DNA of 32,164 nt from a virus. Location of the stretch: the IMG/VR virus record IMGVR_UViG_3300045988_105262; one strand, 5' to 3'. A model generated the notes under the pieces. That model saw only the letters and a list, made by a program, of their open reading frames with translations. It ran no database searches and was not told the DNA's origin. Below, one piece after another: positions 856-32,164 of this stretch (positions within the stretch are counted from its first letter, which is position 1; each line of letters begins with the position of its first letter). The position numbers were made by a program, and so were the translations under genes.

Positions 856-2946
856 TCAATAGTCTCCAGCGCCCCGAGATTGAATGAACACCTGAAAAAA
901 CAAGTTAGCCGTGATGCGTGTCAGCTCATCCGGCACAAACGCAACTTTATGCCAGGTGCTGCGTGTGACACGCCCATCATCATTTGCTGCCATATACTTG
1001 GCGATGTCGATCTCTTTTTCATCGCCAATATCTTCTGCAGGAATCTCTTTCCCATCTACCTTAACCGTTATAGATTTTGCACGATTTCCGGTATAAATGC
1101 CATACTCTATATCATGTGTATGCTCTGGGATTTTGACGCTATGATGATGCGGCTCCAGCTCAAACTGCATGCTAGGAATTACATGCTCATGCTGAATATC
1201 ATGTACATGCGGCATGTTATGCGTATGGTCAAAGCTGTGAGCGTGCTCACCATTTTCGCCCGTTGCCTGTTTTCCACTGCCGTTCTGCGAATCGTATGCT
1301 CCACCCGTCCAAAGCGTGCCGCTCCCGTCCACCGAGCCGGTCGGCGTGACTTGGATGCTTTTGTTGCCCGTGTAGATGCCGCCGGTCGCCGATGCGCCTT
1401 TCGAAATGCTGTGATTGTGCGCGATCGAGTATGTCTTCGCCGAGCCGGAAAAGCCATGATCATGCGACGCAATCGCATGGACATGCGTAAAATTGTGACT
1501 GTGATTTCCGGCCTTGCTCGTCGTCGTCTTGACAGCGCCGAGGTAGTCCTTCGACCCGCCGGTCAGCAATACCGTGCTCCCATCCGTGTCCATCGGCTCG
1601 CTGGAGTACTTCACGCCGACGGAGATCGTCTGCGCCGGTATCGTCACCGTGCCGCCTCCGCCTTCCTCGCTCGTGCGCGTGCTTCCGCCTCCTGCTGCCG
1701 CCAGCTTGGCATAGCTGCGAAAAGGCTCGACCTGCCATTTGAGCAAGCAGCGGTTGATGCGCAGGACATTGCCGGGCACGTAAAAAGACATCTCCAGCGG
1801 ATGATCCGCGTCGCAGCTGTCCGCGATCTGCATGCTGTAAAGATTGGTCGCGCCCTGGCTGTATAGCTCCTGCACGCCGATCTTGTCCAAAATTTTGTTA
1901 AGCTCTTCGGCGGTGTCGCGCACGCTGCTGTCCAGCGTCAGCTTGACGCTGCCGGGGTCCCCCTCCATGTCAGTCTTTTCGCGACCGGTCACGCGGGTTT
2001 TAACGGTTTCGCCAAGCGCCTCGTCGAGAATCAGCACACGGTCGCCGACCCGCACATCGTCCCAGTCGTCGCCGGTCAGTGCATGCAGATCAATGCAGGT
2101 TGCCTCGTAGGAAACCTGTGGTCGCTTTCCACTTTCCAAAATTACACGCATCCGCGCCAGTAGCGTCTCCGGGTCAGTCTGCCTCAGATCGGCATGCAGA
2201 CCAACTCGCACACCATAGCGCGCCATTGTTTCAGCGTCAGCGTCGATGTAATCTCTACCGTCATTGATGGCGGCGACTGTCAGCTGGTTGTCACCCTCGC
2301 CGTAGCCACGACCGACCAGCCGCGTGACGATTCGCCCGTCGATTGTGCGCCGGATAGCACTGACGTTGCGCCCATAGACCAGCGCCCGCGTCGCCTCCTG
2401 GTCGAGCTTTTGCAGCCGGATCGTCCAAGGCTTTTCCCGCGCGTCGAAGGCGAAAGCGTACTCATCCACGAGCACCTCGCCCAGCGACATGATGGCTTCG
2501 AGGAGCGTTACATCCTCAAAGTTGTACTGGTACTGGTCGGTAAAATCGCACACGCCCAGCTCCCAGCGTGCCGTCGATTGGCGCGCGAGGATGTAGTCAA
2601 GCACCCAGCGCGTATCAAGCTCCGTCCCGCCCAGCTCATGATGACCGATCAGCATGTCATCTAGCAGCGTACACTCCGCGCTCTCCATCTCGTAGGTCAC
2701 GGTCGCGCCGCTCGCCTGCTCGGCGTGGACGGCCGATTTGACGCGGAAAAGCCCGATATAATCCTCCCCGTCCGTCAGGCGTATCCAGCTTGTCGGCACG
2801 TCGATCAGATCTGTGATCGGGTCGCTTGCGGCCATCTCCAGCGTCGCCGTGTCCAGCTCGTTGAGGGTCTGCTTGTAGCCGCAGCGGATGGCCGTGTCGA
2901 TCGGCGCTTTAAGCGTCATGCCGTCGTTCTCCATCAGCTCGATCAC
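856..2946 (-). CDS. Tail-associated (Tal-like) tail-tip/baseplate protein: prophage-tail family N-terminal region, Gly-rich linker, C-terminal HxH-repeat fibre domain
   Basis: Positioned after the Dit-like gene. Likely GTG start at 2946 (GTGA overlap with the upstream stop, GGGAGGTGG RBS) rather than the track start at 3045. The C-terminus carries HSH, HVH, HDH, HNH, HAH, HTH, HVH, HEH, HHH and HTH motifs. Confidence 0.7.
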   Translation of the reverse strand: MIELMENDGMTLKAPIDTAIRCGYKQTLNELDTATLEMAASDPITDLIDVPTSWIRLTDGEDYIGLFRVKSAVHAEQASGATVTYEMESAECTLLDDMLIGHHELGGTELDTRWVLDYILARQSTARWELGVCDFTDQYQYNFEDVTLLEAIMSLGEVLVDEYAFAFDAREKPWTIRLQKLDQEATRALVYGRNVSAIRRTIDGRIVTRLVGRGYGEGDNQLTVAAINDGRDYIDADAETMARYGVRVGLHADLRQTDPETLLARMRVILESGKRPQVSYEATCIDLHALTGDDWDDVRVGDRVLILDEALGETVKTRVTGREKTDMEGDPGSVKLTLDSSVRDTAEELNKILDKIGVQELYSQGATNLYSMQIADSCDADHPLEMSFYVPGNVLRINRCLLKWQVEPFRSYAKLAAAGGGSTRTSEEGGGGTVTIPAQTISVGVKYSSEPMDTDGSTVLLTGGSKDYLGAVKTTTSKAGNHSHNFTHVHAIASHDHGFSGSAKTYSIAHNHSISKGASATGGIYTGNKSIQVTPTGSVDGSGTLWTGGAYDSQNGSGKQATGENGEHAHSFDHTHNMPHVHDIQHEHVIPSMQFELEPHHHSVKIPEHTHDIEYGIYTGNRAKSITVKVDGKEIPAEDIGDEKEIDIAKYMAANDDGRVTRSTWHKVAFVPDELTRITANLFFQVFIQSRGAGDY

Positions 2947-14649: not shown

Positions 14650-15422
14650 TTAAAAGAGTTTGGTCTGCTCGCTTTTATGCATCGACATGCCAATCACGTC
14701 CTCCATACGTACTTGGCTTTGTGCTTTTTCAATCTCCCGACATGCAACAGCGTACATCTGCGGATCGAGCTCGATTCCGACAAAGTTGCGTCCTTCAGCA
14801 TGCGCTGCCACGCCAGTCGAACCACTACCCATTGTAAAATCCAATACAGTTTCACCAACATTGCTGTATGCGCAAATCAGATACCTCAACAGATCAACCG
14901 GATTTTGTGTTGGATGGACCCTTTCCGACGTTTTAACGGACGGAAAATCAAGCAAATCGTTAGGATAATACTCACTTCCTTCCGCAACAGATGCGCCCGC
15001 TGCGCCATAAACTCCGAGTCGCTTTTCTTTGCTTTTCCTTATTGCATATTGTCCTTGTACCATCTGCGGATTATAGGTGCTCTGCCTTCCAGCAAAAATT
15101 ACAATATTCTCGCATACTCTCATCGGTTGCTTCTTGGCGTTTAAAAAATTGCGTGCAGAATGCTTATACCATGTCAATTGATATTTAAAATCTCTCAGAT
15201 TACTATGCACTAATTCAGCAGAAAATGGCATTTGACAAAACAGAGCGATTACCCCCCAGGCTTGATAACACGTCGAAGGGCACGCCACATTTCATCCAAA
15301 GGGATCACGCTATCCCACTTACAAGCAGTTACACCATACGGCGGATCGGTCAGAACAAGATCGACACTGTGTTCCGGAAGCTTTTGCATCTTCTCAATAG
15401 CGTCTCCGCAAATCAGCTGCAT
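14650..15422 (-). pseudogene. N6-adenine/N4-cytosine DNA methyltransferase (DPPY ... HPTQNP ... FTMGSGST) split by a frameshift at a G6 run
   Basis: A 57-codon N-terminal ORF (15422..15249) reads MQLICGDAIEKMQKLPEHSVDLVLTDPPYGVTACKWDSVIPLDEMWRALRRVIKPGG* and is not in the track. The C-terminal frame (14650..15288) continues ...WGVIALFCQMPFSAEL.... One extra G in the run at 15252..15257 would give IKPGGVIALF. Confidence 0.8.
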
Positions 15423-15435
15423 TCAATTGACCTCC

Positions 15436-15921
15436 TTATTCCGCCGTGATTTTAATCACTCGCACACCCGCCAGCTCGGCTAACGTGGCCGCATTGTCCT
15501 TCGCACCACCATGCCGTTCCGGGTGCATCCGCTCGTGGCAGGCGTCGCACAGGCTTATCAAATTATCAAGCTCAAGCGCCTTTTCCGGCGCGACTTTCAG
15601 CGGCATGATATGATGCACCATCGTCGCTCGTACCGGGAGAAGGCGTCCGACATAGTCCATTTCATACCGTCCCTCTTTGGCGCAAAGCTGACACTCACCC
15701 ATATCTCGATCCAGCGCCTGCTTTCGCGCCGCGCGCCACGCCGCCGTGCTGTAAAAGGGGTCTGTCTCTTTTTTTTTTGCCTTTCCTCCCGCTTTTTCAT
15801 CCACATCCAGCGTGTCCTCCCCTAAAGAAAAACCGCAGACCCGGCATTTTTCGCCGTTCTTGCGGTTCGCTTTTCTTTTTTTGTTGAGTGTATCATATCG
15901 TATAGGCAAGGGTGGGTACAA
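15436..15921 (-). CDS. HNH endonuclease (terminase-associated type)
   Basis: CQLC ... VHHIMP ... NLISLCDACH..H motifs. Located upstream of terS/terL. The start is uncertain (TTG at 15921 or 15909, no clear SD). Confidence 0.8.
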   Translation of the reverse strand: MYPPLPIRYDTLNKKRKANRKNGEKCRVCGFSLGEDTLDVDEKAGGKAKKKETDPFYSTAAWRAARKQALDRDMGECQLCAKEGRYEMDYVGRLLPVRATMVHHIMPLKVAPEKALELDNLISLCDACHERMHPERHGGAKDNAATLAELAGVRVIKITAE

Positions 15922-23174: not shown

Positions 23175-23415
23175 CGCTTTTGTCCCCCTCAAAGGGCATT
23201 TCATTCTGTGCGTGCCGGGAGATAATCGCCTCGACAAGCGCACGCTCCAGTAAATCGACGATGTCATCCTGACCTTCATAGTCCGTCGCCATCGTCTGAA
23301 TGGCATCCACACATAGGCACGCCAGTTCATCCAGCAATTCATCCGTTGTACCGGTAAAGCTGCCGCTGATGCTGATGCTGTCGTCAGCTTCCCTTACTAC
23401 CTCCGCATTGATCAT
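23161..23415 (-). CDS. Highly acidic small early protein (first gene after the cro-like gene)
   Basis: 84 aa with 19 D/E against 4 K/R by hand count. GGAGGA RBS, ATGA coupling to the cro-like gene. Confidence 0.6.
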   Translation of the reverse strand: MINAEVVREADDSISISGSFTGTTDELLDELACLCVDAIQTMATDYEGQDDIVDLLERALVEAIISRHAQNEMPFEGDKSGAVH

Positions 23416-23687
23416 TCCAAATCCTCCAGATCGTTGTCGGTCGTCGGTGCTTCCGCCTGCTGTGCCGCGTCTTCCTGCTGCACGTCATCCATCTCCGGGA
23501 AAAGTGCATCAATGCTCACGCCGAGGGCGCGCGCCATCTTCGGCAACTTCTCGAGCGTTTTTCCGCGTGTCCCATTTGCAAGTCGAGCAATGGTTACTAA
23601 ACTAATACCAGATTTCTCAGCAAGTTCGTTCATAGTCATGTTTTTTTCGCGCAAAGCAAGTCTCAATCGCTCAGCAAACCCGTTCAT
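23412..23687 (-). CDS. XRE-family HTH regulator, Cro-like by position (heads the early operon)
   Basis: LREKNMTMNELAEKSGISLVTIARLANG HTH. Divergent from the other XRE gene. Downstream of a consensus promoter. Confidence 0.8.
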   Translation of the reverse strand: MNGFAERLRLALREKNMTMNELAEKSGISLVTIARLANGTRGKTLEKLPKMARALGVSIDALFPEMDDVQQEDAAQQAEAPTTDNDLEDLE

Positions 23688-23875: not shown

Positions 23876-24232
23876 TTGATTGGTACCTTCGGTGACAGAC
23901 TTCGCGCAATTCGTGAGGACCACGACGTTATGCAAAAAGATCTTGCGGAAGAATTTGGGATTACACACAGTGCATTAAGTCGCTACGAGCAGAATAAAAG
24001 AGAACCTCCGATTGATTTCATCATCAATTTCTGTCGGTATTTTAATGTTTCATCTGATTTTCTCTTTGGTCTATCTGATGATTACAGACCTCCGGTGAAT
24101 GTCAGCATCCCCCCTGCCATCATGTCTCGAAACCCTTATGCAGATTTATCACCCGATCACCGCGCAACGCTAGATGCTATGGCAGACATATTTAGGCAAC
24201 AAGAAGCAGCGCAAGGACAAAAAGAGGCGTAA
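23876..24232 (+). CDS. XRE-family HTH repressor, CI-like by position; no S24 peptidase domain
   Basis: LRAIREDHDVMQKDLAEEFGITHSALSRYEQNKR HTH. TTG start after AAGGAGGTG. Only 118 aa. Confidence 0.75.
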   Translation: MIGTFGDRLRAIREDHDVMQKDLAEEFGITHSALSRYEQNKREPPIDFIINFCRYFNVSSDFLFGLSDDYRPPVNVSIPPAIMSRNPYADLSPDHRATLDAMADIFRQQEAAQGQKEA

Positions 24233-24718: not shown

Positions 24719-24747
24719 GGTTTTTTCCTCCGTTTTCGTTTTTGTCC

Positions 24748-24776
24748 ATTATAACGCCCATTTTATCCGAATGCAA
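24748..24776 (-). promoter_or_regulatory. Promoter TTGCAT-17-TATAAT for the membrane protein gene
   Basis: The minus strand reads aTTGCATtcggataaaatgggcgtTATAATgg. -35 at 24776..24771, -10 at 24753..24748. Confidence 0.7.
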
Positions 24777-24785
24777 TTAATTTTA

Positions 24786-24957
24786 TGCCGTTTTGGTATG
24801 TCTTTTTAACAAAATGTTATTCCATTTCGGTATATTTCACCGTTTCGGCAAGTGATTTTAACAGTTTGTTTTGCTATTTCGGTCGTTTTATACCATTTCG
24901 GCAAGCTTTTTAACAGTCTGTTATACCGTTTCGGCAAGCACTTTTTAACATTTTGTT
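24786..24957. repeat. About 52-bp unit repeated three times, containing six operator-like 13-mers and four AACA-N3-TGTT dyads
   Basis: 13-mers start at 24786, 24820, 24838, 24872, 24891 and 24924, with alternating 34/18-bp spacing. AACAnnnTGTT dyads start at 24808, 24860, 24912 and 24947. Confidence 0.85.
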
Positions 24958-24982
24958 TACTAAAACGGCAAAAAATCGCCCT

Positions 24983-25347
24983 GTTACGCTTTCATGTTAC
25001 GATTTTAGCCCCAATGTTACGCATTTTCCTCCAAAATCGTAACACGATTTTAGCTAGTCCACGCCTAGGTTTTTCGGGGGTGTGTTACGATGTTACGTAT
25101 TTTTGCGGAATATAGGGGCTATATTCACACGCGACAAAGTACATTGCAAAAAAAAATGCGAAAAAATCCTTGTCGCATTGAAGCCGCGAAAAGGGGGCTT
25201 AGGGGTAAAAATACGTAATTTTCGTAACATTATATATTTTTATAATAAATAATACTTAATTATTCTATATATTATTAGATTCTGTATTGCCCAAAAATGT
25301 TACGATTTTGCCGTAACATGCCCCTTCAAAATCGTAACAATCGTAAC
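24983..25347. repeat. Iteron-like field: 11 exact GTTACG/CGTAAC hexamers (consensus ATGTTACGATTTT) in two clusters flanking an AT-rich core
   Basis: Forward copies at 24983, 24996, 25016, 25084, 25092 and 25299. Reverse copies at 25038, 25223, 25312, 25333 and 25342. The exact 13-mer is at 24994 and 25297. 25229..25290 is almost pure A/T. Confidence 0.85.
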
Positions 25348-25389
25348 ACCCTAATGTTATCCACAGTTTTTCCCCAATTTGTCCACAAG

Positions 25390-25413
25390 AAAACCGAATA
25401 CGAATTCGGTTTT
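25390..25413 (+). promoter_or_regulatory. Perfect 10-bp inverted repeat (aaaaccgaat acga attcggtttt) abutting the integrase RBS
   Basis: Read directly. The right arm ends in TTTT and is immediately followed by GAGGAGG and GTG 25428. Confidence 0.5.
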
Positions 25414-25427
25414 GAGGAGGTGCTATC

Positions 25428-27041
25428 GTGAAAACCGCAGTCACCTATGCCCGCTTCTCATCCGCTCGGCAGCATGAAACCTCCATCGAGGCGCAGCGTG
25501 ATGCGATGGCAAAGTGGTGCGTTCAGCATAACGTGCAAATCGTACAGGAGTATGCTGATCGTGCTGCATCCGGTACGAAGACCGAAGGGCGTAACGACTT
25601 TCTTCAGATGCTGTCTGATCTGAAAGCACGACGTGTTGATTATGTCCTCGTCCACAAATACGATCGGTTTGCAAGAAACGAGAACGATCAGTATTTCTAT
25701 ATGGCGATGATTGAAAAACGCGGCGCAAGGCTGATTGCAGTCGCCCAGGAGTTTGGCGACAGCCCTGAAGCGCGTTTTATGGTCGGTGTCATCACCGCAT
25801 ACAACGCTTTCTACTCAGCAAATCTGTCGAATGAATCTAAAAAAGGCAAGAACGTCATCAAAAAGCAAGGCAAGCATACCGGAGGGCCCTATCCGATCGG
25901 GTACGATCCGGACGGCAAAGGCAACTACATCGTCAACGAGGTTGAAGCGTATTTCGTCCGCGAGCTGTATAACGCTGTCATTACGCACAGACGCCTGGAT
26001 GACGTTGTAGACGAGATGCGCGACGCAGGTCTGCGCGGACGATATGGCGGTACGCTGAAAACAGCCAATCTTTCACGCATCGTCCGAAATCCTGTTTATA
26101 TGGGCGTATACCATCGCATCCTGTCCGACGGCACCGTTATTCACCTGGAGAACCACCATGAAGCTATTGTCGATAAAAGAACATTTGAGGAGGCTAACCG
26201 CATTATGGATTCACGCGCAAACGCTGGTCGAAACGACCGCAAAATCTATCCGCTGAGTGGCATCGCCTATTGTGCATGCTGTGGTGCAAAACTCGTCGCG
26301 CAGACTTCCCGCGCTCATGGGCACGAGTATTCGTCTTACTACTGCGCACAGTGCCATGACTTCCGCCGTATCCGCGCTGAAGAGCTGGATGGCGCTGCCA
26401 TCGACTACCTCAACGCTCTGTTTTCGCCAGAACGGCGCGCAGAGCTGTCAAAAGCCATTGAGGACTACTCCAAGCGCCTGATCTCTTCCGCTACCACGCG
26501 CCAGCCATCTGCTGCACGTGACATCAAAAAGCTCCAGCGCGAAATTGATTCCTTGACCGCCAACCTCGCATCCGGTGTGCTATCCCCAGATATGCTTGTC
26601 ATGATCGACCAACAGATTTCTTCTCGGCGTGAACGCATCAAAATTTTGCAGGAAAGCATCACTGCGCCTTCACCCGTCACGGCAGCCGATGTCGATGCGT
26701 TTTTCTCGGATGCGACCACTCTGGCGCCGGATATGGACGTGCGTCATCTGCGCCAAGTCATGCGCAAGTATATCAAGCGCGTAACGGTACACTCTACGGA
26801 GATCGAATTTGTTTCCACCTTCGACGACTGGCTGAGTGAAAAACTCAGTGCCGACCGAGAAAAAAGCGATGAAGGAGGTGGGGATAAACAAAGTGTAAGA
26901 ATCGAATCAAATAGGTGCGTATTTGAAGTAATTCTTACACTCTCATTCATTCATCGCACTCCCGGACTTGAACGCTATCGACGAACTCACCGCACTTTAT
27001 ACAAATCGCACAAAATCGAAGAACGAGTGAAAAGAAATTAA
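25428..27041 (+). CDS. int: Large serine recombinase (phage integrase)
   Basis: N-terminal resolvase motif VTYARFSSARQ. Recombinase domain. Zn-ribbon CACCGAKL...YYCAQC. C-terminal coiled coil. GTG start after GAGGAGG. Confidence 0.9.
   Translation: MKTAVTYARFSSARQHETSIEAQRDAMAKWCVQHNVQIVQEYADRAASGTKTEGRNDFLQMLSDLKARRVDYVLVHKYDRFARNENDQYFYMAMIEKRGARLIAVAQEFGDSPEARFMVGVITAYNAFYSANLSNESKKGKNVIKKQGKHTGGPYPIGYDPDGKGNYIVNEVEAYFVRELYNAVITHRRLDDVVDEMRDAGLRGRYGGTLKTANLSRIVRNPVYMGVYHRILSDGTVIHLENHHEAIVDKRTFEEANRIMDSRANAGRNDRKIYPLSGIAYCACCGAKLVAQTSRAHGHEYSSYYCAQCHDFRRIRAEELDGAAIDYLNALFSPERRAELSKAIEDYSKRLISSATTRQPSAARDIKKLQREIDSLTANLASGVLSPDMLVMIDQQISSRRERIKILQESITAPSPVTAADVDAFFSDATTLAPDMDVRHLRQVMRKYIKRVTVHSTEIEFVSTFDDWLSEKLSADREKSDEGGGDKQSVRIESNRCVFEVILTLSFIHRTPGLERYRRTHRTLYKSHKIEERVKRN
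26892..26941. other. Candidate attP: 50-bp imperfect dyad inside the 3' end of the integrase ORF
   Basis: The outer 11 bp are perfectly inverted (agtgtaagaat / attcttacact). 19 of 25 half-site positions are symmetric. The local GC drops to about 33%. Confidence 0.4.
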
Positions 27042-27195
27042 AAAATAGCGCATTTCAGATAAAATTTCTTTGCAGTGGGACCGTTCGGTGCCAGAGCAAG
27101 CATGTTTTTTTCAGAATCGGCAGGGGGATACCCTCCCAGGTGTTACTATTATAGTCGTGGGAAACCCAGTCGTTGCCGCTAAGCGGCAAACACGC

Positions 27196-27229
27196 ATAAA
27201 AAACAGCTGTACAAAGTCGTACAGCTGTT
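27196..27229 (-). terminator. Rho-independent terminator ending the minus-strand cargo cassette
   Basis: Perfect 11-bp stem aacagctgtac / gtacagctgtt with a 6-nt loop, followed on the minus strand by TTTTTTAT. Confidence 0.85.
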
Positions 27230-27238
27230 AATGTATCC

Positions 27239-27685
27239 TTATCTCTTGGCGATGGCATGCATGTACCGCGCGACCTTGTGCGCCTTGGCGTCCTTGTCGT
27301 CGACAAATGCTTTTGCCATCTTTCCGTAAAACTCCGGCGCATTAATACCCGCCGCCGAAATGGTCGGTCCATAGTCCGACCAGATCATATTGAGCGCGAC
27401 GAAAAACGCGATCATCTGATCGTCCGTCACGCCGAGCTTGTGCCCCAGCTCCGACGCGTCGGCATATGTCCAGCGCCCGCCGTGCGGCCTGGATGCGTCG
27501 GCGTTGTCCATGTGATCCACCCACGCCTGCGCCTGCTCCATCGTGATCGCTTCGCTGCCCTCACAGTCCTCATCAAGCGCGTCCATCGCGATGGACATCA
27601 GCGCATAATCGCGAACGTTACTCAGCGTCTGCGGGCACTGCTTGATCTGCTCTCTGGCTTCCCTGATGGTCTCAGCCGTCCACAT
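27239..27685 (-). CDS. Hypothetical cargo protein C (soluble, acidic)
   Basis: Open frame 27239..27691. The second ATG (27685) has better spacing from TAGGAGGG. No family recognised. Confidence 0.6.
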   Translation of the reverse strand: MWTAETIREAREQIKQCPQTLSNVRDYALMSIAMDALDEDCEGSEAITMEQAQAWVDHMDNADASRPHGGRWTYADASELGHKLGVTDDQMIAFFVALNMIWSDYGPTISAAGINAPEFYGKMAKAFVDDKDAKAHKVARYMHAIAKR

Positions 27686-27696
27686 GCTCATCCCTC

Positions 27697-28038
27697 CTAT
27701 GCCTTAATCCTGTCAATCTGATCGACCAACTTGTCCACATCCTCCGGCGTGAAGCTCATGCTATCCTGCCCGATCTGGACGGTCATGCGCCCGCCTGCCT
27801 TGGTCATCTGATCCTTGAGCTGCGTCGCCACAGCGCCGACGTCGATACAGCCATCCTCCGACATAATGCCCAGCGCCTGAAGCGTTGGCAGATACTTACC
27901 GACGATCCGCTCCGGGTGAGCCGCCGCCATGCCAACGGCCACGCCGTAGACGATCCCTTTCGCGCCGCTAATAGATGGGCGCACTACCACGTCATAGTAG
28001 TGCGCCACACCCGCGGCGACCTGCTGCAAAGTCGCCAT
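27697..28038 (-). CDS. Hypothetical cargo protein B (113 aa, one hydrophobic stretch GIVYGVAVGMAAA)
   Basis: GGGAGG RBS. Tightly packed between neighbouring genes. No family recognised. Confidence 0.6.
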   Translation of the reverse strand: MATLQQVAAGVAHYYDVVVRPSISGAKGIVYGVAVGMAAAHPERIVGKYLPTLQALGIMSEDGCIDVGAVATQLKDQMTKAGGRMTVQIGQDSMSFTPEDVDKLVDQIDRIKA

Positions 28039-28045
28039 ATGCTTT

Positions 28046-28606
28046 TTAGCCTCCCGTGCTCGCGCTGGCTGCGGCCGTCGTCGGCGCAGTCCACGAGTTA
28101 TAGCGCTGCATCGGCTGCGGGCAAATGTTGCTGTCCGGAATGACCGTCTTGGTCATTCCCTGAAGCGCCGCAACCTGGTTCTGCAAACAGCCGATCAGAC
28201 CGTTGTTGGTCGCGTTATAGACTGCCTGCTGTGCAAGCTGTCCCTCTACACCGCGCAGTCTGCCGTCAAAGTACTCGTACACCTTTAGGATTTTGCTGTC
28301 CGTGTGGATGTTCGCGTCGCGCAGCTTGACCTCGGTTTCCAGTTCCGCGATCCTCGCAGACTGAGAAGCCTCGTAGCGGTTGATCGTGTGATCCTCGCTA
28401 CAAGTGCACCCCGCCGTGCGCGGCGCAGCGTTGGCCATCATCATAGCCGCAGCCATATCCGTGGCCGCATTGCCCGCGCGATTTCCGCCAAGCAGATTGA
28501 GCAACGCACCGCCGCCACTCATAAGACCGAGCGCCGTGCCAGCAATACCAAGACCCAGACCAGCACCAGCCACACCTTTGGAAGCATACTCTTTATATTC
28601 CATCAT
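28046..28606 (-). CDS. Hypothetical cargo protein A: N-terminal glycine-zipper membrane segment, CTC motif, coiled coil
   Basis: ATG 28606 follows AGGAGGG. The segment GVAGAGLGLGIAGTALGLMSGGGALLNLLGG contains GxxxGxxxG. ARIAELETEVKLRD heptads. Confidence 0.65.
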   Translation of the reverse strand: MMEYKEYASKGVAGAGLGLGIAGTALGLMSGGGALLNLLGGNRAGNAATDMAAAMMMANAAPRTAGCTCSEDHTINRYEASQSARIAELETEVKLRDANIHTDSKILKVYEYFDGRLRGVEGQLAQQAVYNATNNGLIGCLQNQVAALQGMTKTVIPDSNICPQPMQRYNSWTAPTTAAASASTGG

Positions 28607-28637
28607 GCTTCCCTCCTTTCTGTTCCAATTTTCCCAC

Positions 28638-28670
28638 AAAAAAAAGACGCGCACCTGTCAGATACGCGTC
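28638..28670 (-). terminator. Rho-independent terminator after the late/lysis operon, only about 30 nt upstream of the next RBS
   Basis: Stem gacgcg(t)a / t(g)cgcgtc followed by T8 on the minus strand. Confidence 0.65.
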
Positions 28671-28704
28671 ATATTTCTATCAGATTTCTATCACACAAGC
28701 CAGT

Positions 28705-28923
28705 TTAACCATCTTTCGTATATGAAGATGCAGACATCCGTCTTTTGATCTCGCGAATACTGCGGCTGACGGTCGCAGGCGACATGCCCAGCGCCATGCT
28801 GATCTGCACAATGCTGTAACCGCGCCAGAGCAGGTCGAAGACCTGCCCCAGCCGGACGTGAACGTCAAAGCCGCAGCGTCGAGCGATCTCCTCTTTAGTG
28901 CGCCTGTCAAAGTCAAGGCGCAC
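28705..28923 (-). CDS. Small HTH DNA-binding protein (sigma-70 region 4 / LuxR-type HTH)
   Basis: GYSIVQISMALGMSPATVSRSIREIKRRM. GTG 28923 lies 8 nt after AAGGGAGG. Confidence 0.65.
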   Translation of the reverse strand: MRLDFDRRTKEEIARRCGFDVHVRLGQVFDLLWRGYSIVQISMALGMSPATVSRSIREIKRRMSASSYTKDG

Positions 28924-28938
28924 AGGAAACCGCCTCCC

Positions 28939-29397
28939 TTACTCGCTCGCGTCCTCTTCTGCTTCTTTGCGCTCACGCAGCTGCTCGAGCGCCTGCTGGA
29001 TAACCGGCGGAAACGGCACACCAGCCAACGCCAAGTTTTCAAGAATGGAAAGTCCCTCGTTGGCAATATAAAAGCAGATCATCGTCGTCCGGCAGACGGC
29101 CATGCCCGTCGGCAGCACGCGATCCACAATTGCCGCCATCAGCACAGCCAGGAGCATCAGCACCTTTTTACCGATGCCCATAAAGCCGATCTTGCTGTCC
29201 GGGCCGCCGCCCTCAGTCTTTCGGCTTTTGCCCATCCATGCGACGATGCAGCCGGTCATATAGTCGATCACCATCACCGCACAAAGCACCTTGATCATCT
29301 GATCCCATCCTCCGTATACCCCAGCCACAGCGCCAACGGCAGCCGCGCCGATCTTTAGCACCTTATCCCACACATCCGCAAAGCTATGCATGTTCAT
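28939..29397 (-). CDS. Holin (phage_holin_4_1-like)
   Basis: Multiple TM segments and the characteristic ANEGLSILENLALAGVPFP motif. Adjacent to the endolysin gene. Confidence 0.8.
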   Translation of the reverse strand: MNMHSFADVWDKVLKIGAAAVGAVAGVYGGWDQMIKVLCAVMVIDYMTGCIVAWMGKSRKTEGGGPDSKIGFMGIGKKVLMLLAVLMAAIVDRVLPTGMAVCRTTMICFYIANEGLSILENLALAGVPFPPVIQQALEQLRERKEAEEDASE

Positions 29398-29405
29398 ACC
29401 TCCTT

Positions 29406-30179
29406 TTAATCTTCAGCAACCGTCCACCTGCCCGCCAGCGTGATGTACACGCCGTCGCTCCTGCGCAGGGAAGTCGTCTCCACGTCCGCCGCCGTATCAT
29501 CCGCCGGAGAATCCGTGCCGCCGGAAGGGATGGATTCGTCCGTCGTCAGATACTCCCCAGACATGTACCCGGCTTCCCCGCTTTCCAGCTTGCCGAATAC
29601 CCAGCCCGTGCCGCCCGCCTCGCGGATCACGTTCACCCGCGTTCCATTCTCGGCTCTGGCAATCACCTTCGCCGCCGTACCCGCACCCTCGCGGATGTTC
29701 AGGTAGCCGCTCGTGACGCTTACCGTTGCGTTTCCAAACATCTTCTCATCTCCTTTCGTTTCGTACTTCACCGCGTTCAGCGGCGCGGCAAAAGCCCATC
29801 CCTTCGCGTCGCTGGCGACGAATCCCGTCTTGACGCCCTGCGCGTTCAGCACCTTGCCGTCCCGCCCCATCAGCCCGATGTGGTAGCAGTCGCCCGGCGA
29901 TTCGCCATACCAGCGGTTGCCCCTGTCCTCCTCCCGCCATGCGCGCATCTTAAAGACCGCATAGCCCGGCTTGGCTTCTCCGACTGGTACGACCTTCCCG
30001 ACCCGCAGGTGATAAATACTGTTGCTCCCGTGTTCGATGCTCCCGCCCATCTGCTTATACGCCCAGACGAACGCCCCGGAGCAGTCCACCAGCCCTTCCC
30101 GCGCCGCGCCCAGCTCATACGCCCAGTGTTCCCGCTCCATCCTCTCAAAGAGGTCGAGCAGCTTATTTACGTCAATCAT
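29406..30179 (-). CDS. Endolysin: NlpC/P60 cysteine peptidase + SH3b-like wall-binding domain
   Basis: Catalytic DCSGAFVW and CYHIG motifs. C-terminal GNATVSVTSGYLNIREGAGTAAKVIARAENGTRVNV...GYMSGEYL is SH3-like. Confidence 0.85.
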   Translation of the reverse strand: MIDVNKLLDLFERMEREHWAYELGAAREGLVDCSGAFVWAYKQMGGSIEHGSNSIYHLRVGKVVPVGEAKPGYAVFKMRAWREEDRGNRWYGESPGDCYHIGLMGRDGKVLNAQGVKTGFVASDAKGWAFAAPLNAVKYETKGDEKMFGNATVSVTSGYLNIREGAGTAAKVIARAENGTRVNVIREAGGTGWVFGKLESGEAGYMSGEYLTTDESIPSGGTDSPADDTAADVETTSLRRSDGVYITLAGRWTVAED

Positions 30180-30600: not shown

Positions 30601-32164
30601 TTAGCGCATTTCGTCATACATATAAATTGGGTATTTCTTTTCTAACAATTCAAGAGGGTTGACGTTAATCAATCCTTTCGATTTTGCATATTGCACCACT
30701 TCTTTAAATCGTGTTGTTAATGCTTCTTCATTTTCGTCTGTCCACATACCAGTATGAGTCATCAAAATCATACTAGCTCCTATGGATGCGCAACTGTCAA
30801 TGTAGCTTTTTAGTTTTTCAGTATTTCCATCATTCACTTTATTAGTCAGTCCGAAACGAGGAATGTTGTATCTGTTATTTAATGTGTTTGGTTCTGCCGT
30901 TATATACTTTTTAGGATCAGCGTTTATCGCATAACGAAATCCGCGTTTTTGAGACATAGACATAATCCAACTTCTCGAAGCATCTGTATCGGGGATACCG
31001 CCGGGAACAACCCATACGGATTGTACATCAAAAAAGCCCCAAGAATTGAGCGTACGCAAACCTTTATTGAAATCTTGTTCTGCATATTTTAAGCATTCTG
31101 CATTTGTTCTGTTGACTGTATCCCAGCAGTTAAGTCCGCTGGGTGTTTGCGCTGCCTGATTATAGCAATGAAGATAGCATCCAAACCCTTCATTTTCATA
31201 GTTTCTAAGCATTGTAACAATGTTATCATCAAGTTCCAAGTGTCGTGCTTCTACGGCATATCCGCCTACCACACCATTAGCAATACATATATCATAGAAT
31301 TTCTTTACGCTTTTTTGTGTATTTGTGTCATCGTCAATAATTGCAAAATACATCGGCTGCGCTTTCACTGATTCCAGATATTTTCCGATATATGCATCAT
31401 TTCCGCTCATGTGCAAATTCAAATATTCTATTGTTTCAGATTTTTTTACCAGTTCATATGTTTCAAAACCAGTTGCTGCATCTCCATATTCGATTTGCAG
31501 TTGATTTTCTCCCGTTTGTGCATTCCAACAAATTCCAATGAATCTATATTTGGCCGGAATAACATGCGTTCCGTTATTATCTTTTGTATTCCATGCGTTC
31601 ATCGACCATTTCTCAATCGAATTTCCATGCAAAAAGGCAGTATAAGCACCACCCTTATCTGGGAAGCCGCTTAATGTTATTGTTTTGTACTGATTAACAT
31701 CGATTACAGCTGCCATCCACGTGTTATTAGCATCTGTGGCATTAAATTTATTATTGAGATAATAGCCATGCACAGCACCATCAACATTTAATAAATTTTT
31801 CTTAGGCAAATTCTTAATTGATAATTGGCGAGTTGTAAGTGATAAGCCTTCATTCGCAACATTCATTGCGCCTTTTGCAGATGCACTTGATTCTTTTGCT
31901 GTATTGTACGCTTTCGTTTCGCGGCTACCGTAAAATTTTATATCTTTTGCATCAGCCGGAACGATTAACCCTTTCCCATCCGGAGCCGTTCGTACTTTGC
32001 ATATCAAATATTTTATATCGTTCGTCAGTCCATTTGCAACAATCGTTCCAGTTGACCATATAATCACGGCTTTTAGAATTGTATATGATCCATCATTTTT
32101 GTCCGTCGCCCACACTGATATTTGCAAATTATCGGGTACGCAAATATGTATAGGGTAAGCCAAA
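30601..32164 (-). CDS. Tail fibre / receptor-binding protein, C-terminal part (low-GC module; possible NodB/CE4-like carbohydrate esterase fold)
   Basis: The ORF runs off the right edge. Its first codon, TTG at 32163, is an internal Leu of the joined gene. Weak motif resemblance: AIIDDD, WVVPGG, ILMTHTG. Hand-counted lines give 35-40% GC. Confidence 0.75.
   Translation of the reverse strand, partial: LAYPIHICVPDNLQISVWATDKNDGSYTILKAVIIWSTGTIVANGLTNDIKYLICKVRTAPDGKGLIVPADAKDIKFYGSRETKAYNTAKESSASAKGAMNVANEGLSLTTRQLSIKNLPKKNLLNVDGAVHGYYLNNKFNATDANNTWMAAVIDVNQYKTITLSGFPDKGGAYTAFLHGNSIEKWSMNAWNTKDNNGTHVIPAKYRFIGICWNAQTGENQLQIEYGDAATGFETYELVKKSETIEYLNLHMSGNDAYIGKYLESVKAQPMYFAIIDDDTNTQKSVKKFYDICIANGVVGGYAVEARHLELDDNIVTMLRNYENEGFGCYLHCYNQAAQTPSGLNCWDTVNRTNAECLKYAEQDFNKGLRTLNSWGFFDVQSVWVVPGGIPDTDASRSWIMSMSQKRGFRYAINADPKKYITAEPNTLNNRYNIPRFGLTNKVNDGNTEKLKSYIDSCASIGASMILMTHTGMWTDENEEALTTRFKEVVQYAKSKGLINVNPLELLEKKYPIYMYDEMR
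32046..32164. repeat. Right copy of the 119-bp terminal direct repeat (assembly overlap of a circular or concatemeric molecule)
   Basis: Identical to 1..119. The minus-strand ORF frame is continuous across the join. Confidence 0.95.

Follow-up and report, generated by a model that had tools for sequence, protein, structure and literature searches.

The window analysed here is a virus sequence of 32,164 nucleotides (IMG/VR record IMGVR_UViG_3300045988_105262), and it represents a temperate siphophage of gut Clostridia with a complete and circularly permuted genome. It carries a cassette of three genes, named A, B and C here, at 27196..28670. A and B are an invariant pair and the conserved core of this operon, and the third gene is swappable. 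The cassette is well supported as a moron-type accessory operon at the far end of the late block, next to the attachment site and the integrase. The prophage moron is already a well-known kind of element; the content of A-B had no family assignment and was not found in domain libraries, INPHARED or the literature.

The three genes were tightly packed on the minus strand between two hairpins with T-runs, and they followed the endolysin, the holin and a helix-turn-helix (HTH) gene. Gene A (28046..28606) encoded 186 amino acids (aa). Its partner, gene B (27697..28038), encoded 113 aa and began after a gap of 7 nt. Gene C occupied the third, exchangeable position. It more likely starts at M3 (27239..27685, 148 aa) than at M1 (27239..27691, 150 aa), because an AGGAGGG Shine-Dalgarno sequence abuts the first ATG and sits 6 nt before the second, and because the homologues begin MWT. 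The B-C gap was 5 nt with the M1 start and 11 nt with the M3 start. A first-pass annotation of the window had described this packing, and the open reading frame (ORF) calls confirmed its coordinates, gaps, lengths and motifs.

The linkage of the genes was followed in 88 loci fetched via A, which comprised five contigs from look-ups of A and B homologues, three metagenome-assembled genomes (MAGs; Oscillospiraceae, Gemmiger and Clostridia) and 80 IMG/VR contigs. Hidden Markov models of A, B and C were run on all six-frame ORFs of these loci. B stood directly after A in all 83 assessable loci, in which the identity of A ranged from ~41 to 100%; the five remaining loci broke off just past A. Where the pairs had diverged most, B was only 21–25% identical to B of the window. 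The linkage was also kept, at low identity, in the unannotated human-faecal GenBank contigs MT837891 and MT840043, which were found independently by the A, C and divergent B queries. In INPHARED, no cultured phage carried A, B or C, and only unannotated human-faecal contigs matched. The MT840043.1 record (L090) is unverified, and the N-terminal part of its A homologue (1429..2019) was out of frame with the remainder, which could be a sequencing error or a pseudogene.

At least 312 loci with A-B were confirmed in IMG/VR. In a collection of 5.8 billion proteins, 7032 of 8000 scored candidates matched A at E <= 1e-3; the best 120 matches, which were inspected, were 124–194 aa long (all but one 156–194 aa) and 55–100% identical. 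An exhaustive profile search for B retrieved 226 representative clusters at 50% identity, nearly all of them stand-alone proteins of ~105–130 aa, and a word-based search retrieved 27 clusters.

The first-pass annotation had taken A, B and C together for a co-conserved system of three components. The gene-neighbourhood check contradicted this, as only A and B were co-conserved. Protein C belonged to the Pfam family DUF7841 (PF25223; 55.0 bits against a gathering cut-off of 25.2, E 1.2e-14), and its close homologues were all annotated PF25223. Of the 84 sources that had a B homologue, the window among them, 49 had DUF7841 after B. The family was not specific to the operon, and it occurred without A-B in crAss-like and podovirus genomes and in locus L093, where it closed a quite different set of cargo genes. 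No literature on DUF7841 was found. C is an independent phage accessory passenger, which is exchangeable and would share a transcript with A-B, and DUF7841 can now be described as an independent phage cargo gene.

Protein C was acidic (pI 4.99) and carried the HGGRW and WSDY motifs, in agreement with the earlier description. Its predicted structure was all-alpha with seven helices, at a predicted local distance difference test score (pLDDT) of 67.6. A Foldseek search of the PDB with this model gave no fold match (best E 0.86, template modelling score < 0.3), and a profile search of PDB sequences gave no match. The Foldseek search of BFVD returned only DUF7841 proteins of uncultured phages, including crAss-like phages and a podovirus.

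Other loci had a helical protein of 92–111 aa in the third position instead of DUF7841. Several of these alternative third genes showed sub-threshold similarity to rubrerythrin and ferritin (PF02915, E 1.7e-4 to 2.5e-3; PDB ferritins, E 0.004). The ferritin-like ones carried an E...ExxH pattern, and some third-gene variants had no ExxH. The possibility that these proteins are remote members of DUF7841 was considered and rejected at an hhalign probability of 1%.

The accessory nature of A-B was assessed in 15 new assessable phages, which were fetched via endolysin similarity alone. Twelve of them had the HTH gene and, where detected, the lysin and the holin, followed by other genes before the convergent integrase and by no A-B; the other three carried A-B. 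Therefore, A-B comes as a unit that some phages with the same flanking genes carry and others lack. The HTH gene stood upstream of A in many loci and was considered as a fourth member of the cassette. This was rejected, since it followed the lysis genes in phages without A-B and thus belongs to the lysis module. HTH homologues of 63–100 aa ended the lysis module in many related phages, with or without A-B, and a role as a late or cargo regulator is possible.

Phages without A-B had alternative cargo in the same slot (L091-L106; e.g., L091:11683-12504, L098:8761-9519 and L093:8355-8984). One such protein of 209–284 aa combined a coiled coil and an N-terminal, Gly-rich membrane segment with an invariant CCCET motif, and its C-terminal tail read GCxCN. 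It was accompanied by conserved proteins of 148–174 aa ('YYPPMQDQLAQLR...IIWVQGE'), 75–93 aa (Q-rich) and 134–140 aa, and none of this cargo had a Pfam match. The CCCET protein was not supported as a distant homologue of A (hhalign probability 4%), and the two are alike in architecture only.

The position of the pair was also well kept. In 63 of 73 loci, B was followed within 3 kb by a convergent integrase, which was of the tyrosine type in 43 and of the serine type in 20. In the window, the gene convergent with the cassette encoded a large serine integrase (25428..27041, plus strand), which is given here as context only. The 197-bp gap between the cassette and the integrase stop (27042..27238) is, judging from its position, the likely attP region. 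The integrase and the repressor are on one strand and the lytic genes on the other, so that integration in this gap would bring A-B-C to the attR end of the prophage, where they would directly follow the lysis genes. Between the cassette terminator and the integrase stop, the gap also contained a 7-bp inverted repeat (TTGCCGC-TAA-GCGGCAA, 27173..27189), which is a candidate part of attP.

The classical moron or lysogenic-conversion slot, to which the cassette had been assigned earlier, was thus recovered: it follows the lysis genes, faces the 3' end of the convergent integrase and adjoins attR in the prophage. The cassette does lie between the lysis genes and the integrase, as previously placed, with the correction that a 72-aa HTH gene stands between the holin and gene A. 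According to PMC5883640, which cites Brussow, Canchaya and Hardt (2004), the lysogenic-conversion region of Gram-positive temperate phages is found after the lysis genes by attR, and the same source defines morons as prophage-expressed genes.

The operon was bracketed by two terminator-like hairpins on the minus strand. The upstream one (28638..28670; hairpin 28670..28646) resembled an intrinsic terminator, with an 11-bp stem, a 3-nt loop and a T8 run, and folded at -16.6 kcal/mol (z -3.9). The downstream one (27196..27229; hairpin 27229..27202), which closes the operon, had a 12-bp stem, a 4-nt loop and a T-rich tail, and folded at -16.9 kcal/mol (z -4.5). In each case, none of 200 dinucleotide shuffles was as stable. 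The upstream hairpin would stop the late lysin-holin-HTH transcript just ahead of gene A.

A loose scan of the window gave seven terminator sites against 7.3 expected, with no excess over chance, and the two cassette terminators were the two best of these seven. The case therefore relies on the strength and conservation of both hairpins and not on their count. Among 76 unique related loci, 60 had a terminator-like site in the 220 nt ahead of A, compared with 46 of 316 random 220-nt windows of the related loci (~15%) under the same criteria. Downstream of the third gene, such a site was present within 160 nt in 47 of 70 related loci. The hairpin sequences differed between lineages, which indicated that the terminator feature is maintained and not simply inherited. 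The bracketing rho-independent terminators reported for this cassette are accordingly real, being both strongly folded and conserved in relatives.

A putative extended -10 element (TGgGAAAAT, 28628..28636, minus strand) lay directly after the T-run of the upstream hairpin and 8 nt before the CAGAAAGGAGG ribosome-binding region of gene A. In an alignment of nine leaders over the ~80 nt that precede A, TG-n-nAnAAT was shared at a fixed distance of 7–9 nt ahead of the CAGAAAGGAGG region. The A, A, A and T were invariant in all nine and the TG was kept in eight, while the flanks varied (A 59–85% identical). From this alignment, TG-n-nAnAAT appears to have the form of an extended -10 promoter. There was no -35 element at the putative promoter, and a two-hexamer promoter scan gave no site here. 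An Rfam search of the leader found no riboswitch or leader family (best Thr_leader, 22.8 bits against a threshold of 55). Between the HTH stop and the upstream terminator, GATAGAAAT occurred twice, 11 nt apart (28673..28692, minus strand). Loci L009-L011 had one copy of GATATAAAT where the window has the GATAGAAAT repeats. The repeated element may be bound by a protein or serve as an alternative -10 element.

Residues 11–41 of protein A formed an uncharged 31-residue segment rich in Gly, Ala and Leu, which contained a glycine zipper (G23xxxG27xxxG31) and was among the most conserved parts of the family. It was followed by an Ala/Met-rich linker, hypervariable in length and sequence, and by the conserved motif C-x-E-D-H-x-V-N-R-Y-E (CTCSEDH in the window). 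After this motif came ~80 residues of helix with heptad, or coiled-coil, character. Cys residues were conserved, and A of the window had four. The C-terminus carried a conserved Pro-rich motif (TKTVIP..ICPxPM..NSWTAPT), and that of a second subtype read CCGDN...FYPK...CGCxCN; each C-terminal subtype occurred alongside either kind of third gene. In Firmicutes, exported proteins generally contain little Cys, and the Cys content of A therefore suggests that its bulk is cytoplasmic.

Protein B was predicted to be alpha/beta. The single hydrophobic stretch ascribed to it earlier was present and moderately hydrophobic, but its maximum Kyte-Doolittle value of 1.27 was under the transmembrane range. 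B had no signal peptide, no transmembrane segment and no N-terminal Cys or lipobox.

The statement that the proteins have no recognisable family stood for A and B and failed for C, as described above. Neither A nor B had a match in Pfam, PHROGs, NCBIfam or PADLOC, and DUF7841 was the one match of C in these collections. Against PDB sequences, the A profile gave coiled-coil noise only (VP35 and Sas10) and the B profile gave no match. None of A, B and C matched a structural or lysis family of PHROGs or Pfam.

Here, the following explanation is proposed for the operon. It would have its own transcription from the conserved extended -10 promoter abutting the upstream terminator, and therefore it could be expressed in a repressed prophage; judging from these sequence features, it is probably expressed from the prophage. 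A would insert in the cytoplasmic membrane via its glycine-zipper segment and would oligomerise via that segment and the coiled coil. The Cys-rich bulk of A would face the cytoplasm, where the small soluble B may bind and control it. In the most speculative step, A-B would shield the lysogen against other phages, either by stopping genome entry at the membrane or, by an alternative route, through permeabilising the membrane when infection is sensed. The whole chain, from prophage expression through assembly of A in the membrane and its regulation by B to a role in phage-phage conflict (exclusion or abortive infection), is a tentative proposal to which we give somewhat less than even weight. 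Defence or exclusion at the membrane is our best guess. That A-B is a new, very widespread two-gene exclusion or abortive-infection system of human-gut Clostridia prophages, acting at the membrane, unrelated to the catalogued defence families and with A as an effector gated by B, is conceivable and rather doubtful.

The first-pass annotation had also favoured an abortive-infection, exclusion or toxin-immunity module. This was a reasonable guess, and it gained no support from PADLOC or from the folds of the B and C models.

Several observations weigh against this explanation. The glycine zipper, the CTC motif and the coiled coil described earlier for A were all present, but the membrane segment itself was borderline for a transmembrane helix (maximum Kyte-Doolittle value over 19 residues, 1.55), and the topology suggested for A is derived from its Cys content alone. 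The search of PADLOC-DB v2 returned no match for A, B or C at E <= 1. The AlphaFold2 model of B was poor (pLDDT 58, from a shallow alignment); a Foldseek search with it gave no match (best E 0.43), and thus no fold evidence for B. The cassette was co-oriented with the late genes and nearly always after them, which also fits a late function. The putative -10 element of the window is 30 nt from the start codon, and late read-through is possible. The GC content of the cassette (58–61%) gave no compositional sign of foreign origin when compared with the lysis genes (56–64%). Finally, no integrase was detected nearby in 10 of the 73 loci (~14%), some of which had other contexts beside large polyvalent proteins. 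A literature search on glycine-zipper prophage exclusion found nothing specific.

Loci with polyvalent neighbours included L007 (Gemmiger MAG), L006 and L068/L069/L074. In these, a block of HTH, A, B and third gene stood beside very large polyvalent proteins, either an upstream MuF-like protein of 1799–1855 aa or a convergent LPD38 protein of 1375 aa, and not beside lysis genes or an integrase.

Four other explanations were weighed. The first is that A-B is a late-expressed lysis or egress accessory, which works with the holin and endolysin as an antiholin, a lysis-timing regulator or an i-spanin-like membrane disruptor, and is expressed via leaky read-through of the terminator. The shared strand and orientation of the cassette and the late operon would agree with this, as would its place directly after lysin-holin-HTH in the window and many relatives and a GC content equal to that of the lysis genes. 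Lambda Rz has an N-terminal membrane segment, a coiled coil and Cys, and A is similar in architecture, with its N-terminal membrane segment, coiled coil and conserved Cys. However, a strong terminator separated the cassette from the lysis genes in the 60 unique loci noted above, insertions of 1–3 kb with ANT/Bro genes can part the two, and L007, L068 and L075 had no lysis genes upstream of the cassette. Most phages that share the lysin-HTH module had no A-B, which therefore cannot be essential for lysis, and A-B matched no lysis family of PHROGs or Pfam. Clostridia hosts are expected to have no outer membrane and B has no lipobox; thus, spanin logic does not apply. We consider a lysis accessory unlikely.

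The second is lysogenic conversion unrelated to defence, in which the operon would act on the envelope, stress, redox or metal physiology of the host, to the benefit of an anaerobic gut bacterium. The operon is placed and insulated as conversion genes are, the candidates scored suggest a very large A family, and A has conserved Cys/His motifs (C-x-E-D-H, and the CGCxC tails of the second subtype). The small helical third gene of about half of the loci, with its weak rubrerythrin or ferritin similarity and E...ExxH, points in the same direction. However, this similarity was under the curated thresholds and some variants had no ExxH, and the third gene, being swappable, says little about A-B. 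Moreover, A, B and C had no match to a known stress or metal family. A function of this kind is likewise improbable in our estimation.

The third is a toxin-antitoxin or addiction module that stabilises the prophage or kills infected cells, with A as a pore-forming glycine-zipper toxin and B as the antitoxin or immunity protein. The strict co-inheritance of two small, translationally close genes, with a membrane protein first and a small soluble partner second, resembles such modules, and the zipper region of A is one of the best conserved of the family. However, neither protein was similar to a toxin, antitoxin or immunity family, and A, at 186 aa and mostly a soluble coiled coil, showed nothing that indicates toxicity. 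This explanation is quite improbable, and it overlaps the abortive-infection variant of the proposal for A-B and does not exclude it.

The last, that there is no system and three unrelated cargo genes share one transcript, draws on the independence of C and on the mosaic of alternative cargo in the slot, and it is very improbable, since the adjacency of A and B in every assessable locus over such deep divergence of B is unexpected for unrelated neighbours in a recombination hot spot.

Membrane-level protection of the lysogen by A-B was retained as the preferred reading, and the cassette was compared with known prophage genes. Like the lambdoid morons (HK97 gp15, lambda bor and lom), the cassette is an extra transcription unit between genes that are adjacent in relatives, and it has its own terminator and a candidate promoter. 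HK97 gp15 is a small membrane protein, as A may be. The cassette differs from these morons as an operon of two to three genes in phages of Gram-positive Clostridia, with no sequence or fold relationship to them and no compositional anomaly. It shares its slot with the conversion genes between lysin and attR in streptococcal and staphylococcal phages, which also follow the holin and lysin, are convergent with the integrase and are variable. In contrast to their secreted toxin cargo, A is a putative membrane-anchored coiled coil, signal peptides are absent from B and C, and the hosts are anaerobic gut commensals.

The logic proposed for A-B, a prophage-encoded membrane protein with a cytoplasmic partner, is that of lambda RexA/RexB. 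However, B is far smaller than RexA, RexB is a polytopic channel protein, the gene order, the sequences and the location differ (the Rex genes are in the immunity region), and PADLOC indicated no homology. Sie2009 of Lactococcus and Ltp of Streptococcus thermophilus are, like A, small, membrane-associated and prophage-encoded, and they act at the cell membrane. They are single genes between the integrase and the repressor, and Ltp is a lipoprotein, whereas A lacks a lipobox, comes with an obligate partner and is encoded at the opposite end of the prophage.

Temperate phages of Oscillospiraceae and related Clostridia are, to our knowledge, among the commonest elements of the human gut, and we know of almost nothing on what such prophages do for the benefit of their hosts. 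A-B looks abundant, is always linked and is located where prophages keep genes that act in the lysogen. If it is an exclusion or defence module, it would be a new type of system and would help to account for competition between phages and for the stability of prophages in gut anaerobes. Even without an assigned function, A and B give two clean and testable family definitions.

The rest of the genome was consistent with a temperate siphophage. The genes for the large terminase, portal, prohead protease, major capsid protein, tape measure, tail proteins and primase were all on the minus strand. The terminase was at most 38% identical to that of any INPHARED phage. A CI-like repressor (23876-24232, plus strand) opposed a Cro-like gene (23412-23687, minus strand). 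The late block ended in the order tail gene, DUF6275 gene, endolysin, holin and HTH gene, all before the cassette. The endolysin was of the NlpC/P60-SH3 type (29406-30179, minus strand), and the holin belonged to Phage_holin_4_1 (28939-29397, minus strand). The 72-aa HTH protein (28705..28923, minus strand), which ends the lysis module and is outside the cassette, resembled GerE, sigma-70 region 4 and, weakly, Mor.

Three further features of the window were observed. An N6/N4 DNA methylase (14650..15288) and an HNH endonuclease (15436..15921), both on the minus strand, were located just upstream of the terminase genes. A region of ~700 bp (24719..25427) between a 140-aa ORF and the integrase start was AT-rich (GC 36–42%) and had no convincing ORF; it could be regulatory or a remnant. 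The last tail gene (30601..32163, minus strand, 520 aa), the ORF of which reaches the window edge, had a GC content of 36–40%, compared with ~58% in its neighbours, and no Pfam or PHROG match; its appearance suggests that a receptor-binding or depolymerase module was acquired recently.

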